A model generated the notes under the pieces. The model made no database searches. It had not been told where the DNA came from and worked only from the letters and a program-made list of their open reading frames with translations. From Phycisphaerae bacterium (GTDB taxonomy: Bacteria; Planctomycetota; Phycisphaerae; SM23-33): a DNA stretch of 64,000 nt. The stretch lies in the NCBI GenBank assembly GCA_041661865.1, contig JBAZTO010000004.1, forward strand, positions 614 to 64,613, read 5' to 3'. The translations under genes were made by a program, and so were the position numbers. Of the stretch, positions 9,741 to 35,252 are shown one piece after another (positions within the stretch are counted from its first letter, which is position 1; every line of letters starts with the position of its first letter).

Positions 9741-9790
9741 CAATGACGAATGACGAAGTGCGAATGACGAATCAATGACGAAACGTCACG
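9741..9790. repeat. GAATGACGAA-family repeat arm (forward orientation) directly after lexA stop
   Basis: caatgacgaatgacgaagtgcgaatgacgaatcaatgacgaaacg; inverted partner at 11368-11420; complete IR copies at 30786-30909 and 34249-34380. Confidence 0.7.
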
Positions 9791-11169: not shown

Positions 11170-11420
11170 CCGTTTGCGGAAGGGCATGTTGATCGTGATG
11201 CCGTGGGCGGGTGCCGTGGTCGCGGCGTTTGCGACCACGAGCAGAAACGACGATACCCGCTCGCTTCGCGCTCGCGGCTAGTGCGCCAAGGCGCGGGCCT
11301 TGGTGCCTGCCTGCCGGTAGGCAGGTTGCGCGCCCTACATTCCGCTTAGTTCGTCCCCGCTGTCTTGGTCATTTGTGCTTCGTCATTGATTTGTCATTCG
11401 AGTTTCGTCATTCGTCATTC
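11170..11420. repeat. mosaic cluster of REP-like modules (BIME-like)
   Basis: Contains GGGTGCCGTGGTCGCGGCGTTTGCGACCACG (11210-11240, identical 31-mer at 56963), right half of CTAGCCGCGAGCGC element (11265-11295), CTGCCKGTAGGCAGGTTGCRCGCCCT module (11315-11345, also at 36519-36547) and inverted GAATGACGAA arm (11368-11420). Confidence 0.7.
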
Positions 11421-13351: not shown

Positions 13352-13422
13352 GGTGCCACTGCTGCGGTGTTTGCAGCAGTGTTGAAGCTATGCACGGCTG
13401 CACACGACGCAGCCGTGGCACC
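13352..13422. repeat. 71-bp structured repeat: GGTGCCAC - hairpin - hairpin - GTGGCACC
   Basis: ggtgccactgctgcggtgtttgcagcagtg...cggctgcacacgacgcagccgtggcacc; near-identical copy at 32419-32489 and architectural variant at 32640-32712. Confidence 0.65.
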
Positions 13423-30785: not shown

Positions 30786-30909
30786 ACAATGACGAATGAC
30801 GAAATGCAAATGACGAATCAATACTCGAATGCTCGAATATCCCAAACAGAATCCCGTGGACCCTGTTGGGTTATTCGTCATTGACTCGTCATTCGAGTTT
30901 CGTCATTTG
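30786..30909. repeat. complete about 125-bp inverted-repeat element of the GAATGACGAA family between gfo and mnmE
   Basis: acaatgacgaatgacgaaatgcaaatgacgaatcaatactcgaatgctcgaatat [central cccaaacagaatcccgtggaccctgttggg] ttattcgtcattgactcgtcattcgagtttcgtcatttg. Confidence 0.7.
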
Positions 30910-30926
30910 TATTGGGTGGTCTCTTC

Positions 30927-32345
30927 ATGTTCGACTCCAGCGACACTATCGTGGCGATTTCTTCCGCTGCCGGCCTGGCGGCCCGGGCGATCGTGCGGCT
31001 GAGCGGCCCGGCGGCGCTGAGCCTGGCCTGCCAGGTCTTTCACCCCAGCGGTGCGAGCCTGCTCGATAGTCCCGGGTTTCGCCGACGGGAGGGTGTCATT
31101 GACCTGGGCTCTCGCGACATTTCGTTGCCCGCCCGCGCGTATGTCTTTCGCGCCCCGCGAAGCTACACGCGGCAGGACCTGGTGGAGTTTCACATCCCCG
31201 GTTCGCCCATCGCGGCCTCGGCATTGACGGCCGCCCTGATCGAGCTTGGCGCCCGAGCGGCGGGTGCGGGGGAGTTCACCGCGCGGGCCTTCTTCTCCGG
31301 GCGGATCGACCTGTCGCAGGCCGAGGCGGTGGCCGACGTGATCGACGCCGCCGATGAGGCGCAGCTTCGCTCGGCGGTCTGGGCCCTGGGCGGGCAGGTG
31401 CGCCGACTTTGCAGCCAGGCCGCTGCCAAGCTGACCGACGCACTGGCCACCGTGGAGGCGTCGATCGATCTGGAGGAAGAGGGCATCGTGCTGGAGTCTC
31501 CCGCGGCGCTGGCGGGCCGGTTGAAGGCCCAGGCCGGGCATCTGCGGCAGATCGCCCAGCAGGCCGGCGACATGCCCGACAGGGCATCCTGTCCGCACGT
31601 CACCATCGTCGGGCGGCCTAACGTGGGCAAGAGTTCGCTGCTCAACGCCTTGAGCGGCACGGACCGGGCCATTGTCTCGGCGCTGGCCGGCACGACGCGC
31701 GATGTGCTCAGCGCGCCGCTGCACCTGCAAGGCGGCTCGGTCACGCTCCAGGACGCCGCCGGCTTCGGCCAGGTGACCGACAGCATCGCGCGGGCCGCCG
31801 ATCGCGCGGCGCGGGCCGCCATTGCCGCCTCCGACGCCATCATCTTTCTCTGCGACATTTCCGCCGACAGCTTCGGGCCTGATGCATCCCTGCTGGCAGA
31901 GGTGCGAACGCACAACGGACGCTGCCCGCTGATCGCCGCCGCCAACAAGTGCGACCTGCTGGACGCCGAGGCGCTGCGGCAACGCGTGGCGCAGTTGGCG
32001 GCGCTGCCGGGCAACGGCGACGCGGTCCTGGCCGTCTCTGCCGCCAGCGGTCAGGGTTTGGCGGAACTGAAGGCCGCCCTGGCCGAGCGATTGAGGCTCT
32101 CTGCCGAGCGGAGCGGGTCGGCGCTGGGGCTCCCCCAGCGGCAGAAGCGGTGCCTGCGCGAGGCGGCCGCCGTGGTCGATGCCGCCGCGGACTCCCTGGC
32201 CGCTGTCGCCAGCCTGGCCCAGCGGGCCGAACTGGTGGCCATCGACCTGCGGAGCGCGCTGGCCCAACTGGGCCTCATCAGCGGGCAGGTCGTCACCGAG
32301 GATGTCCTGGGCCGGATTTTCGAGCGATTCTGCGTGGGCAAGTAG
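30927..32345 (+). CDS. mnmE: tRNA modification GTPase MnmE (TrmE)
   Basis: G-domain [15 protein letters not shown]-terminal FCVGK; start at MFDSS. Confidence 0.92.
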
Positions 32346-32418
32346 AAGTCAGCCTCTTGGAGTGTGCGATTCGATGCGGTACTCTCAACCGGTCGAAGAA
32401 CGATGCAGACAATGGATC

Positions 32419-32489
32419 GGTGCCACTGCCGCGGTGTTTGCAGCGGTGTCGGCCCCAAGCACGGCTGCACACGACGCAGCCGTGGCACC
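32419..32489. repeat. second copy of 71-bp GGTGCCAC-hairpin-hairpin-GTGGCACC element
   Basis: ggtgccactgccgcggtgtttgcagcggtg...cggctgcacacgacgcagccgtggcacc. Confidence 0.65.
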
Positions 32490-32639
32490 CATCGGATCAG
32501 ATGTTTGCTGATATGCAGGTGAACCCTTGAAACATCATCGAGCGGCGTTGATCGTCGCAGCCATCCTGGTCCTGGCCGGCGCAGCCTGCCTGGCGGTGCG
32601 GCTGCATCACTGCGGCGCTGGCAGGCCGAGTGCTTGCAG

Positions 32640-32712
32640 GGTGCCACCCCCAAACTCCGTTTGGGGGTGTGAAACGTTGGAACACCCCCAAGACAAACTT
32701 GGGGGTGGCACC
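32640..32712. repeat. architectural variant of the GGTGCCAC...GTGGCACC element with two different internal hairpins
   Basis: ggtgccac CCCCAAAC-tccg-GTTTGGGGG ... CACCCCCAAG-acaaa-CTTGGGGGTG gcacc; lies inside the predicted N-terminal extension of ORF 32527..33354. Confidence 0.55.
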
Positions 32713-32745
32713 TCCGAATTGCCGGCTGCCACATCAAATTGCGCC

Positions 32746-33354
32746 GTGGCCTGGCTGCTGATCCTGCCCCTGGGCGCGCTGGTCACCTCGATCATCCGCA
32801 ACGTCGTCGGTGTGCAGACCTATGGCACGCTGACGCCCAGCCTGCTGGCCATCAGCTTTCTCCAGGCCGATTGGCTCAGCGGCGGGCTCGTCTTTGGCCT
32901 GGTGATGGGCCTGGGCCTCGGCGGCCGGGCGTTGCTGGGCAGGCTCAAGCTCCTGATGGGCCCGCGCCTGGGCCTGGTGCTGACCTTCGTCGTGCTGGGC
33001 CTGGCCGGTGCGCTGAACCTGGCCGGCCGGCGCGGTTACCATACCGACCCGGCGGCCCTCATCCTGCCGCTGGTGGTGCTGACGATGATCGTCGAGCGTT
33101 TCTATATTTCCATCGAGGAAAACGGCCTGGGCCTCTCGCTGCGGCTGCTGGCGGGCACGCTGGGCGTCGGCGCCCTGTGCCTGGCCCTGCTGCGGTGGCG
33201 ATGGCTGGGACAATTGGCTGTGAGCTATCCCGAGGCGCAGCTCTTCGTGGCCGCGGCGCTGGTCTGCGTGGGCCGCTACAGCGGCTACCGGCTGACCGAG
33301 CTGTGGCGATTCCGCGAACTGGCTGCGCCGAAGCAACTGGGAGAAGACCGGTGA
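32746..33354 (+). CDS. polytopic membrane protein (6-7 TM) partnered with the ATP-grasp ligase
   Basis: ORF track starts at 32527 but 32527-32745 is occupied by REP hairpins; in-frame GTG at 32746 (VAWLLILPLG...) is the preferred start; stop overlaps next gene as GTGA. Confidence 0.6.
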   Translation: MAWLLILPLGALVTSIIRNVVGVQTYGTLTPSLLAISFLQADWLSGGLVFGLVMGLGLGGRALLGRLKLLMGPRLGLVLTFVVLGLAGALNLAGRRGYHTDPAALILPLVVLTMIVERFYISIEENGLGLSLRLLAGTLGVGALCLALLRWRWLGQLAVSYPEAQLFVAAALVCVGRYSGYRLTELWRFRELAAPKQLGEDR

Positions 33355-34289
33355 GCGCGCCCGCGCGTAACGGCTGGCTGCCCGCCTGGCCGGGGCATCT
33401 GCGGCGGGCTGGCGTGCTGGGCATGAACGCCCGCAACACCCAACTGCTCGTGGCGCTGAACCCCAGGCGGCTCTACGACCTGGTCAACGACAAGATCCAG
33501 ACCAAGGAACTGTGCCTCCGCGAGGCGATCCCCACGCCGCGAACCTACGCGATCCTCGACCACCCCGCGCAGGTGCCCGCGGCGGCGGAGATCATGCGGC
33601 AGGCCGGCCAGTTCGTGGTCAAGCCCTCGCGCGGCAGCGGGGGCCGCGGTGTGCTGGTCATCGCCGGCAGCGAAGAGGGCGACTTCCGCACCTCCAGCGG
33701 CGTCGCGATGAGCTGGGACGAGATGCGGTACCACCTGCTGATGACGCTGGCCGGCGCGTTCTCCATCGGCGGCCGGGCCGACCGCGTGATCATCGAGCAG
33801 CGCGTCAGCCGCCACGCCGCCTTTGAAGGCCTGGCCGTCAACGGCACGCCGGATGTGCGACTGATCGTCTATCGTGGCAGCGCCATCATGGGCATGCTTC
33901 GCCTGCCGACGCTGGCCTCGGGCGGCCGGGCCAACCTCCACCAGGGCGCGCTGGGGCTGGGCCTGGACATCGCCACGGGCGTGTCCACCGGCGGCTTCTG
34001 CCGCGACCGCAGCGTGGAAGTTCATCCCGACACCGGGGCGGCCCTGACCGGCGTGGCTGTGCCGCGATGGAAGGAAATGCTGGCCGTGTCGGAGAAACTG
34101 TCAGCCGCGGTGGGCCTGGGCTACCTGGGCGTGGACATCGTGCTGGGCGAGGAGGGCCCGCTGGTCCTGGAGGCCAACGGCCGGCCGGGACTGTCCATCC
34201 AGATCGCCAACCGCTGCGGATTGATGACGCGGATCGCCGAAGCCGAGAATCGAATGACGAATGACGAAACTCGAATGATAAATCAATGA
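33351..34289 (+). CDS. ATP-grasp alpha-L-glutamate ligase-like protein (RimK-related)
   Basis: ATP-grasp motifs VVKPSRGSGGRGV, LGYLGVDIVL, LEANGRPG; GTG start overlapping upstream stop; last 13 codons ([13 protein letters not shown]) are encoded by the GAATGACGAA repeat arm. Confidence 0.8.
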   Translation: MSAPARNGWLPAWPGHLRRAGVLGMNARNTQLLVALNPRRLYDLVNDKIQTKELCLREAIPTPRTYAILDHPAQVPAAAEIMRQAGQFVVKPSRGSGGRGVLVIAGSEEGDFRTSSGVAMSWDEMRYHLLMTLAGAFSIGGRADRVIIEQRVSRHAAFEGLAVNGTPDVRLIVYRGSAIMGMLRLPTLASGGRANLHQGALGLGLDIATGVSTGGFCRDRSVEVHPDTGAALTGVAVPRWKEMLAVSEKLSAAVGLGYLGVDIVLGEEGPLVLEANGRPGLSIQIANRCGLMTRIAEAENRMTNDETRMINQ

Positions 34290-34380
34290 CGAATAACCCC
34301 ATACGTTTCGCGTGTTTCTGTTTGGGGCATTCGAGCATTCGAGTATTGATTCGTCATTCGAGTTTCGTCATTCGTCATTA
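34249..34380. repeat. complete inverted-repeat element of the GAATGACGAA family overlapping the 3' end of the ATP-grasp gene
   Basis: atcgaatgacgaatgacgaaactcgaatgataaatcaatgacgaataacc ... cattcgagcattcgagtattgattcgtcattcgagtttcgtcattcgtcatta. Confidence 0.7.
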
Positions 34381-34400
34381 TTGAGCGAAGGACTTACAGG

Positions 34401-35252
34401 ATGCACATTCTGGCCACCATCGTTCCCGCCGAGATCAACAACGTCTACGTCTTCCTGATCCTGGGCAGCCTGTCGGCCATGCTGGTGGCCGTCGCCAAGG
34501 CCGGCTTTGGCGGCAGCATCGGCATGCTGGCCTACCCGGTGATGTTGTACGCCTTCGGCGGCGACGCGTTCCTGGCCGCCGGCACGCAGTTGCCGCTGCT
34601 GATCGCCAGCGACATCCCAGCCCTGGTGCGGTGGTGGCGCAAGTGGAACGGCCACGCCGTGCGAATGCTGCTGCCCGGGGCGCTGGCCGGCATCGGCCTG
34701 GCGTGGTGGGCGCTGTGGATGCTCATCGGCGATGGCCGCACCGCCGAGCAGGTCAAGGTCGCCAAGGCCCAGGCCAACGGCGTGCTCCTGCTGCTGGTGG
34801 GCGTGATCGCGCTGGCCTTCGTCAGCCTGCAGGTGATCCGCTACCTTCGCCGGCGGGCGCTGGCCTTTCGCCCGGTCCCCTGGCAGGGCGCGGTCGCCGG
34901 CGGCCTGACGGGCGTCTGCTCCATGCTGGCCAATGCCGGCGGGCCCATTACCACCATGTTCCTGCTGCCCCAGGAAATGCCCAAGGGCATGTATGTGGCC
35001 ACCACCGTCCTGCTCTACGCCGTCATCAACGAGGTCAAGATCGCGCCCTTCTGGCATCTGGGGATGATGACGCCGCACACGCTGTGGGCCGGACTGCTCC
35101 TGCTGCCCGCGGCGGTGGCCGGCACGTTCCTGGGCCTCTACCTCCACGACCGCGTCGGCCAGAAACAATTCAACGGCATCGCCTACTCGCTGCTGTTCCT
35201 GGCCGGCATCGACATGGTGCACAAGGGCGTCAGGATCCTTTGGTTCTCATAG
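34401..35252 (+). CDS. TSUP (TauE/SafE) family anion exporter
   Basis: 283-aa, 7-8 TM, duplicated 4-TM halves with GGxxG/PLL motifs typical of TauE/SafE. Confidence 0.85.
   Translation: MHILATIVPAEINNVYVFLILGSLSAMLVAVAKAGFGGSIGMLAYPVMLYAFGGDAFLAAGTQLPLLIASDIPALVRWWRKWNGHAVRMLLPGALAGIGLAWWALWMLIGDGRTAEQVKVAKAQANGVLLLLVGVIALAFVSLQVIRYLRRRALAFRPVPWQGAVAGGLTGVCSMLANAGGPITTMFLLPQEMPKGMYVATTVLLYAVINEVKIAPFWHLGMMTPHTLWAGLLLLPAAVAGTFLGLYLHDRVGQKQFNGIAYSLLFLAGIDMVHKGVRILWFS

Follow-up and report, generated by a model that had tools for sequence, protein, structure and literature searches.

A short-form RloB-like membrane protein gene and an overlapping RloC-like ATP-grasp ligase gene form a minimal rlo-type pair in a Phycisphaerae genome

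The DNA analyzed here (the window) is a stretch of 64,000 nt from a Phycisphaerae bacterium (Planctomycetota; assembly GCA_041661865.1, contig JBAZTO010000004.1, positions 614 to 64,613, forward strand), and coordinates below are positions within it. Two adjacent genes are the subject of this analysis: a short-form RloB-like membrane protein gene at 32527..33354 (+ strand, 275 aa), assigned from its PF14402 match, conserved N-terminus and AlphaFold2 (AF2) model, and an RloC-like ATP-grasp ligase gene at 33351..34289 (+ strand, 312 aa), with a GTG start at 33351 and a TGA stop at 34287-34289. Both proteins are present in NCBI, from a Phycisphaerae MAG. A sequence-only reading had described the genes as coupled through GTGA, and this was borne out: they are two same-strand ORFs, and the stop codon of the membrane ORF (TGA, 33352-33354) and the ligase start share the GTGA at 33351-33354. 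The junction as read from the sequence (33340..33354, + strand) consists of GGAG, a 7-nt spacer and the GTG overlapping TGA, and no alternative in-frame ligase start was found ahead of the conserved WxxWP motif. From this arrangement, both genes are predicted to be made from one transcript by coupled translation.

The start of the membrane gene had been placed at 32746, a GTG that gives a protein of 202 aa and that is also the call made in the NCBI annotation. The true start is a TTG at 32527, 219 nt earlier, which gives 275 aa with an N-terminus conserved in homologues and which is preceded by a Shine-Dalgarno-like AGGTGA and a 4-nt spacer (32517..32529, + strand, from the sequence). The 73 residues overlooked include the conserved first transmembrane helix, TM1, encoded at 32527..32610 (+ strand; residues 1-28 by alignment, hydropathy segment 3-27). 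Homologues of 245-257 aa align across residues 1-28 as MxxxR followed by a TM helix; a TTG lies at the equivalent position in both closest relatives, L083 and L087, and gives a similar N-terminus there (MKRDR in L083, and MGQHR in our reading of L087, for which the JGI start call is later); and an equivalent N-terminal TM helix is found in 63 of 69 full-length RloB homologues. AF2 models of the membrane protein (pLDDT 82.7, pTM 0.75, with pLDDT 85-96 in the TM1 helix) and of the ligase are both confident. The earlier count of 6-7 TM segments is replaced by 7-8 from hydropathy, comprising TM1, six more strong segments and one weak segment (99-113).

The membrane protein matches the Pfam family 7TM_transglut (PF14402) with an E-value of 3.6e-43 and 148.3 bits against a cut-off of 25, and all of the family-invariant residues of the 7TM core are found in it. 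The invariant polar residues (R91, R134, R147, E190/R191, E197/E198, R250-R263) lie on or beside the cytoplasmic face predicted from hydropathy-based topology and on the C-terminal helix. The RloB model NF052267 aligns only over model positions 306-505 of 508 (129.4 bits, cut-off 900). Between TM1 and the 7TM core there is no Pfam match to a periplasmic transglutaminase-like domain (PF14400/PF01841), and a custom HMM of the RloB N-terminal domain matched nothing anywhere in the 64 kb window. The outside segment is ~40 aa long and is modeled at pLDDT <50; among 69 full-length homologues its median length is 286 aa. The membrane partner is a polytopic inner-membrane protein composed of TM1, the 7TM_transglut core and, between them, a short loop on the outside, in whose lineage the periplasmic inactive-transglutaminase domain (~290 aa) has been lost.

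The ligase had been described as an alpha-L-glutamate-ligase-like ATP-grasp enzyme, and a RimK-related yet non-RimK ATP-grasp ligase is supported: it matches ATPgrasp_ST (PF14397; E 1.5e-71, 241.3 bits, cut-off 31.4), falls one bit short of the cut-off for TIGR02291, 'alpha-L-glutamate ligase-like' (313.2 bits, cut-off 314.2), and fails the RimK models. It has the ATP-grasp fold, conserved Lys, glycine-rich loop and Mg-binding Asp/Glu/Asn, and its catalytic residues are intact by sequence. In structure comparison its fold is closest to ArgX, LysX and RimK, enzymes that add an amino acid to a peptide carboxylate, and D-Ala-D-Ala ligases are also among the close matches. It is a cytoplasmic ATP-grasp amide ligase in the RimK/LysX structural neighborhood.

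Repeat sequences have entered both genes. A 73-nt perfect-stem hairpin (32640..32712, + strand, from inverted repeat and fold; -52 kcal/mol, z -5.2) lies in frame in the region coding for the loop (residues ~39-62), a loop that varies in homologues and that the hairpin makes the longest among its relatives. A palindromic repeat element of ~145 nt (34244..34388, no strand assigned; fold -63.5 kcal/mol, z -7.3), with arms built on AATGACGAATGACGAA (34253-34287 and 34345-34379, 94% complementary), sits between the ligase gene and a TauE gene and is absent from the same site in L087. Its left arm provides the last codons and stop of the ligase gene. The earlier statement that the last 13 residues of the ligase come from a repeat arm is correct insofar as the arm spans the last 11-13 codons and the stop; only ~8 residues (DETRMINQ) are clearly derived from the element, because a relative without it ends in ...EAETQMTNS*. 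A further hairpin with termini GGTGCCAC...GTGGCACC occupies the intergenic region between mnmE and the membrane gene (32415..32493, no strand assigned, from inverted repeat and fold). Searches of both hairpins and the repeat against known RNA families returned only sub-threshold chance matches, and scans for sigma-70 promoters and intrinsic terminators gave nothing informative.

The gene 3' of the ligase gene encodes a TauE/SafE-family membrane transporter (34401..35252, + strand; PF01925, E 3.8e-22). It occupies this position in L001 and L087 (12 nt each) and in L002 (71 nt), but neither L083 nor L084 has it, nor does any of the 80 species loci apart from the L002 duplicate. Since it is found only beside the closest relatives (L001, L002, L087), we treated it as local synteny and not as an established component of the system; the upstream mnmE was likewise set aside as local synteny only.

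To place the pair within its family, we surveyed 80 species loci from Planctomycetota, Verrucomicrobiota, Omnitrophota and Alpha-, Beta-, Gamma- and Deltaproteobacteria. The ATP-grasp gene lies directly 3' of a same-strand 7TM gene in 78 of the 80, and the coupling to a membrane gene is conserved. Among the 79 pairs in which overlap was scored, 24 overlap by 4 nt and 8 by 1 nt; 4-nt overlaps are also seen at L001, L002, L083, L084, L086 and L087. Across the 80 species genomes, the 7TM gene nearly always encodes ~510-560 aa with a ~290 aa periplasmic inactive-transglutaminase domain. In planctomycete full-length proteins the nucleophile Cys of this domain is replaced by Ala; His and Asp are kept, and we therefore consider the domain still inactive, not an active transglutaminase. 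The short form, in which a short loop replaces the domain, makes up one monophyletic, diversified clade containing the window protein and its close relatives, and its architecture occurs in 18 of the 150 nearest 50%-identity clusters. At identities down to 45-55%, every invariant residue is still there in short-form members, as are TM1 and the overlap of 4 nt, and at the distant short-form locus L084 the pair and its overlap are kept while every neighbor is different. Six other apparent short forms were rejected: L054, L057 and L069 are full-length genes disrupted by an in-frame stop or frameshifts, and L035, L036 and L048 are cut by contig ends.

Natural fusions bear on the arrangement of the parts. 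P0248 and P0256 join a short 7TM protein to ATPgrasp_ST through linkers of roughly 60-100 aa, and P0220 joins transglutaminase domain, 7TM core and ATP-grasp; these 7TM-ATP-grasp fusions imply that the 7TM core ends on the cytoplasmic side of the membrane, where the ligase also lies. In P0037, a signal peptide and a retropepsin-like protease domain occupy the usual transglutaminase slot, with an overlapping ATP-grasp gene next, so that a protease of the polyglutamate type is brought to the outer face of this 7TM core. Together, the 7TM-ATP-grasp and protease-7TM fusions support a single membrane machine.

Pairs of this kind reportedly go back to an original bioinformatic proposal made by Iyer et al. 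in 2009, and the sequence-only reading regarded them as purely bioinformatic, with function unknown. That view is outdated by genetic work on RloB and RloC, which are encoded by rloABC in P. aeruginosa (Lormand et al., mBio 2025, PMC12239564). In P. aeruginosa, the only organism covered by that work, genetic evidence links the operon to tolerance of hypo-osmotic conditions and of beta-lactams, to cell shape and to biofilm (PMC12239564). The RloA proteases sit in the periplasm and can cut polyglutamate in vitro; an rloA1-3 triple mutant dies under hypo-osmotic conditions, and this lethality is fully suppressed when either rloB or rloC is deleted (PMC12239564). RloB and RloC therefore make or deliver something for RloA to process. 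A Shewanella RloB-type mutant over-produces membrane vesicles (PMC12096838).

We are highly confident that the window genes are an RloB-core/RloC pair. They share with P. aeruginosa RloB/RloC the same two Pfam families (7TM_transglut and an ATPgrasp_ST/TIGR02291-type ligase), the same gene order on one strand, with junctions that are tight or overlap, and an N-terminal TM helix before the outside segment. They differ in having the ~40 aa loop in place of the ~290 aa periplasmic inactive-transglutaminase domain, in lacking an adjacent RloA gene or one within the 64 kb, and in their host, a member of Phycisphaerae (Planctomycetota) rather than a gammaproteobacterium. The pair is a minimal version of the RloB/RloC module in which the periplasmic domain of RloB is gone, and this suggests that membrane core plus ATP-grasp ligase is the working unit of an rlo-type system. 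An inactive transglutaminase had been expected as a separate partner; it is normally a domain of the same membrane protein and is missing in the window, and neither a GNAT nor a separate transglutaminase partner was found in the window's flanking genes or at loci with Pfam-annotated neighbors. Half of the surveyed species loci (40 of 80) have an RloA-type protease gene next to the pair. No retropepsin-like RloA gene (PF05618) was detected in the 64 kb window with filters off at E<=10, and no RloA-like gene lies near the other Phycisphaerae loci examined, so a product that needs trimming may not exist here. PADLOC anti-phage defence models did not match the membrane protein, the ligase or the TauE neighbor.

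Comparison with other amide-forming systems sets the pair apart. LysX/ArgX-LysW ligases are ~20% identical to the window ligase (LysX model 35.4 bits, cut-off 275.6), and unlike them the window pair has no LysW-like carrier or lysine or arginine pathway genes near it. Cyanophycin synthetase is likewise an ATP-grasp amino-acid polymerase, and its PDB chains are weak matches of the window ligase (E 1e-8 to 1e-9); it is, however, large, soluble and multidomain, has no membrane partner, and its family cut-offs are far from reached. In function only, and not in ancestry, the pair would resemble the poly-gamma-glutamate synthetase PgsBCA/CapBCA, in which an ATP-dependent amide ligase and a small polytopic partner make and export polyglutamate, whereas PgsB is a Mur-ligase-type enzyme and the window ligase an ATP-grasp. 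The 7TM core was also tried as a PgsC/CapC (PF14102) homologue and rejected, as the alignment is collinear and not significant (hhalign E 0.65 and 0.52, probability ~0.1%); a Pfam match to PF14102 at E 0.3 appears in 2 of 29 7TM-core members, and the PDB holds no PgsC structure. Significant PgsC homology would have backed polyglutamate handling.

We favor a reading in which a glutamate-rich product is made by the ligase, on the cytoplasmic face of the 7TM core, and passed outward by that core; we hold it tentatively, as plausible and a little short of probable. The ligase would dock where the 7TM core is conserved and rich in arginine and glutamate, at its cytoplasmic face and C-terminal helix, with the N-terminal segment of the ligase (residues ~12-57) contacting the GRYSGYRLTELWRFR helix and the cytoplasmic loops of the membrane protein. 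It would then spend ATP building a glutamate-rich, poly-alpha-glutamate-like peptide or tail, which the 7TM core would pass on to the periplasm; there, in full systems, it may be handled or trimmed by the periplasmic domain and by retropepsin-like proteases of the RloA type. A stronger version, possible but doubtful, is that the short 7TM protein and its ATP-grasp partner are a self-sufficient synthase-translocase, which would polymerize glutamate into an anionic, alpha-linked peptide and move this through the inner membrane, with the transglutaminase-like domain and RloA as optional periplasmic accessories. It counts against synthesis and export that the literature searched reports no substrate or product for any RloC, as do the lack of significant PgsC homology, the missing RloA-like genes and the repeat-derived sequence in both genes. 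The name given to the ligase family in Pfam ('sugar-transfer associated') goes back to a different, earlier idea of the substrate and also counts against this mechanism.

The 7TM protein might instead only tether or gate the ligase at the membrane. The ligase would then modify a cytoplasmic or membrane-proximal target, for example attaching glutamates to the C-terminus of a protein in the manner of RimK and LysX/ArgX, and nothing would be exported. We consider this unlikely: the ligase is without the N-terminal domain found ahead of the ATP-grasp core in RimK/LysX-type enzymes, most family members carry a large periplasmic domain, the partner protease RloA is periplasmic and genetically downstream (PMC12239564), and protease-7TM fusions locate this kind of enzyme at the outer face of the membrane protein itself. 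The C-termini of the membrane proteins are themselves unlikely substrates, because they are not conserved and are not free in fusions. Also to be weighed is a ligase that amidates or aminoacylates a membrane-bound or lipid-linked envelope precursor (a peptidoglycan stem peptide, polysaccharide or lipid head group) presented or flipped by the 7TM core. The name 'sugar-transfer associated ATP-grasp', the D-Ala-D-Ala ligases among the close structural matches and the reported phenotypes (cell shape, beta-lactam sensitivity and hypo-osmotic lysis, PMC12239564; vesicle over-production, PMC12096838) point this way; at loci with annotated neighbors, however, the pair has no linked genes for glycosyltransferases, Mur enzymes or polysaccharides, and the recurrent partner, adjacent in half of the surveyed loci, is a polyglutamate-cleaving protease, which leaves such a role improbable.

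Repeat-derived sequence in both genes makes some decay of the pair possible, and its extreme form would be a pair becoming a pseudogene after losing the periplasmic domain and protease and receiving repeats at both ends. The hairpin inside the 5' coding region, the repeat-derived 3' end of the ligase gene and the truncated NCBI call of the membrane protein would fit this. Both frames are nevertheless open, both models are confident, both insertions fall in segments variable among homologues, and the short form is a diversified monophyletic group spread over 18 of 150 clusters that keeps its invariant residues at 45-55% identity, so we regard such decay as very improbable. Finally, RimK and RimB act in the poly-alpha-glutamylation of ribosomal protein S6, RimB being the retropepsin-like trimmer, and an ordinary RimK modifying S6 beside an unrelated membrane gene would account for the weak RimK-domain matches of the ligase (PF08443, E 3e-7; TIGR00768, 48.5 bits). 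This explanation is ruled out by model scores far under the cut-offs (TIGR00768, 48.5 against 143.4 bits; PRK10446, 18.8 against 331), by the missing N-terminal domain and by the 7TM adjacency kept across phyla, sometimes as a fusion. Neither outcome that the sequence-only reading had named as refuting it, grouping of the ligase with ordinary RimK proteins or a lack of conserved coupling to the membrane gene, was seen. Ligase residues 34-110 align to RimK 87-161, leaving the first ~86 residues of RimK without a counterpart, and the window ligase has a conserved helical N-terminal segment of ~57 residues and is tied to a membrane protein rather than to the ribosome.

Three observations point to the 7TM-ligase unit and its two faces as the seat of the essential rlo chemistry: a natural, diversified lineage has nothing beyond TM1, the 7TM core and the ligase, 7TM core and ligase occur fused in other natural proteins, and in others a protease occupies the transglutaminase-like slot. 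The short form also provides a more compact target, of two proteins or even one, for reconstitution and structural studies of a system that in P. aeruginosa affects hypo-osmotic survival, cell shape, biofilm and beta-lactam tolerance. Should the two-protein synthase-translocase prove true, non-ribosomal homopolymers would have a secretion machine of a new class, found widely in Gram-negative phyla and exporting through a membrane fold without a solved relative. In a published survey, Proteobacteria contributed 96% of RloB hits; in the survey made here, full-length RloB-type proteins are also common in Planctomycetota, Verrucomicrobiota and Omnitrophota.

The pair comprises a membrane-protein gene at 32527-33354 (+ strand; PF14402 '7TM_transglut', E 3.6e-43) and the gene for a 312-aa ATP-grasp ligase at 33351-34289 (+ strand; PF14397 ATPgrasp_ST, E 1.5e-71), with mnmE (30912-32345) upstream and a TauE-family (TauE/SafE-family anion) transporter gene (34401-35252) and a convergent methyltransferase gene downstream. 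GTGA at 33351-33354 is common to both ORFs, and the sequence and the Pfam matches bear out the proposal, made in the sequence-only reading, of a membrane-protein gene and an ATP-grasp gene overlapping by these four nucleotides. The ligase scored 313.2 bits against TIGR02291 ('alpha-L-glutamate ligase-like protein'), one bit below the cut-off, and the membrane ORF had a single NCBIfam match, RloB (NF052267; 129 bits, cut-off 900), in which just the C-terminal 200 of the model's 508 positions were aligned. Both proteins have identical NCBI entries from a Phycisphaerae MAG, where the membrane protein (202 aa) is called '7TM domain-containing protein' and the ligase 'sugar-transfer associated ATP-grasp domain-containing protein'. 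The pair is no new kind of system, and both its domains already have names in public annotation. It represents the RloB/RloC module, named recently and so far undiscussed in Planctomycetota, in a form that has lost a domain, and its worth is that it indicates the minimal working unit of a system with unsolved chemistry.

The start of the membrane gene was placed at GTG 32746 by the sequence-only reading and by NCBI; we replace it with TTG 32527, the earliest start codon in the open frame, on several lines of evidence. The 73 residues encoded upstream of 32746 align with homologues of 245-257 aa, every one of which has an N-terminus of the form MxxxR followed by a hydrophobic helix (window MKHHRAALIVAAILVLAGAACLAVRL vs MKRDRPTLLLAAVLVVAGLACIALRA in the homologue P0003). 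AGGTGA lies 4 nt 5' of this TTG, and the two nearest relatives have TTG at the equivalent position and a similar N-terminus. In an AlphaFold2 model computed from a 29-sequence alignment (pLDDT 82.7, pTM 0.75), the N-terminal helix has a pLDDT of 85-96. The membrane protein is therefore 275 aa long. The NCBI model (P0001, 202 aa) is short by 73 N-terminal residues (window 32527-32745) and misses a conserved transmembrane helix; in the JGI annotation of a close relative (L087), the membrane homologue likewise starts too late and the ligase start is placed 3' of a conserved WPxxLRR motif.

To survey the pair, the ligase profile was searched against one genome per GTDB species, and the ORFs of the 80 loci returned (Planctomycetota, Verrucomicrobiota, Omnitrophota, Alpha-, Beta-, Gamma- and Deltaproteobacteria) were then searched with purpose-built HMMs. 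In 78 of these loci the ligase gene came directly after a 7TM gene of the same strand, so that the coupling read from the window is kept elsewhere; the exceptions were L019, at a contig end, and L027, with a DUF1570 lipoprotein gene upstream. Of 79 scored pairs, 24 had a 4-nt overlap and 8 a 1-nt overlap, with the majority of the remainder ≤20 nt apart. The pair is real, beyond chance, and its coupling is conserved. In nearly all loci, other Phycisphaerae and Sedimentisphaerales (L004-L006) included, the 7TM gene product has 505-600 aa, laid out as an N-terminal TM helix (63/69), an outside domain of ~286 aa matching transglutaminase (TGase) models, and the 7TM core. The RloC-like gene of L027 (6026-7966), behind its lipoprotein gene, represents an alternative wiring of the ligase family. 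Among the best-matching species genomes (L003-L082), full-length RloB-type genes were common in Planctomycetota, Verrucomicrobiota and Omnitrophota; in a published survey, 96% of RloB hits came from Proteobacteria. On the core tree, L060, labelled a Lactobacillaceae MAG, clusters with the alphaproteobacterial locus L014, and it is perhaps mis-binned.

The products of P. aeruginosa rloA, rloB and rloC are, respectively, a secreted retropepsin-like protease, an inactive-transglutaminase 7TM protein and an ATP-grasp protein; RloA cleaves polyglutamate in vitro, low-salt medium is lethal to an rloA1-3 triple mutant, which is also defective in cell shape, biofilm and antibiotic tolerance, and deletion of rloB or rloC relieves these defects, completely in the case of hypo-osmotic growth and in part for the rest (PMC12239564). 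Mutation of a Shewanella RloB-type gene gives excess membrane vesicles (PMC12096838). Our literature search found no later biochemical study of the Rlo system. A Pfam-confirmed RloA-type protease gene (PF05618) adjoins the pair in 40 of the 80 loci, the proteobacterial copies being upstream and co-oriented and those of several Pirellulales divergent; none was found in the 64-kb window, even at E≤10, or near L001-L006. Three close relatives also have the TauE/SafE-family gene after the ligase gene, L001 (9896-10747) and L087 (2600-3451) with a gap of 12 nt and L002 (9721-10569) with one of 71 nt, and it could be co-transcribed with the pair there. This linkage was absent from L083, L084 and all other loci examined, and, as it was found only in the closest-relative subclade, we treated it as local synteny and not as membership of the system. 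L084, a distant short form, retains just the pair and its 4-nt overlap.

Among species genomes, the short architecture (without the TGase domain) occurred only in L003, a close relative of the window and the same contig as L002; L054, L057 and L069 were rejected as broken full-length genes, and L035, L036 and L048 as cut by contig ends. When 1.84 billion cluster representatives were searched exhaustively, 1375 relatives were returned, the top 150 of which comprised 115 proteins with TGase domain and 7TM core, 18 short forms and 17 fragments or unclear cases. Metagenomic short forms are diversified (43-69% identity to the window protein). On a neighbour-joining core tree without bootstrap, the short-form group is monophyletic and sister to the full-length Planctomycetota/Verrucomicrobiota clade, and P0026 (L085 1840-3540), whose gene is immediately preceded by that of a PF05618 protease, sits as an independent short form within proteobacterial full-length proteins, which suggests that loss of the periplasmic domain occurred more than once. 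The full-length Planctomycetota/Verrucomicrobiota proteins (L004, L005, L006, L008, L010, L011 and others) match Transglut_core in this domain, retaining the triad His and Asp with Ala at the nucleophile Cys position; in the aligned proteobacterial domains the His motif is lost as well, and the Asp in most.

Natural fusions define the architecture further. P0248 (680 aa) and P0256 (684 aa; L088 2235-4289) join a short-form 7TM part to an ATP-grasp domain through linkers of ~60-100 aa, a length that a simple frameshift at the overlap would not give, and P0220 (880 aa) carries TGase domain, 7TM core and ATP-grasp domain in a single chain. In P0037 (L086 813-1811), a signal peptide and a retropepsin-like protease domain precede the core, with the protease in the usual TGase place; the next gene overlaps that of P0037 and encodes an ATP-grasp protein. 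From these fusions and the short forms, the interval between TM1 and the core is a variable outside slot, holding a TGase-like domain, a protease or nothing, and the constant parts of the system are core and ligase. The window protein consists of TM1, a poorly conserved loop (residues ~28-66) and the core, and its hydropathy profile has TM1, six more strong segments and one weak one; we favour a predicted topology of 1+7 helices because the fusions need a core that starts outside and ends inside. With this topology, the invariant polar core residues would fall on or near cytoplasmic loops and the C-terminal helix GRYSGYRLTELWRFR. Homology of the core to PgsC/CapC, the membrane subunit of poly-gamma-glutamate synthetase, was unsupported (Pfam E 0.3 in 2 of 29 members; hhalign E 0.5-0.65): window residues 76-230 are collinear with PgsC 6-149 and some motifs are similar (RNxVGxxTFGxxxPxLLALSF ~ EKTGIxPAGLVVPGYLALVF; LLMGPRL ~ ILYGRRK; ISIEENGL ~ NTIQKQGL), a likeness without statistical support.

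The nearest solved proteins to the ligase by sequence are RimK and cyanophycin synthetase (E ~1e-9), its AlphaFold2 model has a pLDDT of 86.5, and the ATP-grasp catalytic residues are invariant in the family alignment. That it is an ordinary RimK, part of the outcome that would have undone the sequence-only reading, we rule out as vanishingly improbable: it scores far below the RimK cut-offs, and the first ~86 residues of RimK have no counterpart in it, their place being taken by a conserved helical segment (WxWPxxLRRxGVLGxNxRN...). A conserved, sometimes fused, unit of membrane core and ligase, with an outside slot able to carry a protease and an intact ATP-grasp active site, is established. 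We tentatively prefer, at somewhat short of an even chance, a scheme in which the ligase would make a glutamate-rich product at the core's cytoplasmic face, the core would convey it outward and, in full systems, accessory periplasmic parts would bind or trim it. A 7TM protein acting as tether or regulator, with a cytoplasmic target, is the less probable next choice, modification of an envelope precursor is somewhat less probable again, and a decaying remnant is improbable.

A palindromic element of ~145 nt at 34244-34388 (arms 94% complementary, fold z -7.3) keeps the ligase and TauE genes 111 nt apart, and its left arm contains the last codons and stop of the ligase gene. The arm thus encodes the C-terminus, as had been read from the sequence, but of the 13 residues attributed to it just ~8 are clearly new, because L087, which lacks the element, ends in ...QMTNS* 12 nt ahead of TauE. 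The conserved left arm (~45 nt, AATGACGAATGACGAA(A/G)NNCGAATGA...AATCAATGACGAA) has four copies in the window (9742-9766, 11395-11419 on the minus strand, 30787-30913 and 34244-34388), the last two being complete palindromic elements of ~130-145 nt. Three copies (9742, 30787 and 34244) start where the preceding ORF ends or just inside it, and the fourth (11395-11419) overlaps the 3' terminus of an ORF on the minus strand; the family may be terminator-like or MITE-like. Within the loop-coding region of the membrane gene there is an in-frame hairpin of 73 nt (32640-32712, z -5.2), and the segments that carry the two insertions are variable among aligned homologues. This hairpin and those at 13352-13422 and 32419-32489 are 71-73 nt long with identical 8-nt termini (GGTGCCAC...GTGGCACC); the latter two are near-identical and the in-frame one is internally different, reminiscent of palindromic elements that insert into coding sequence.
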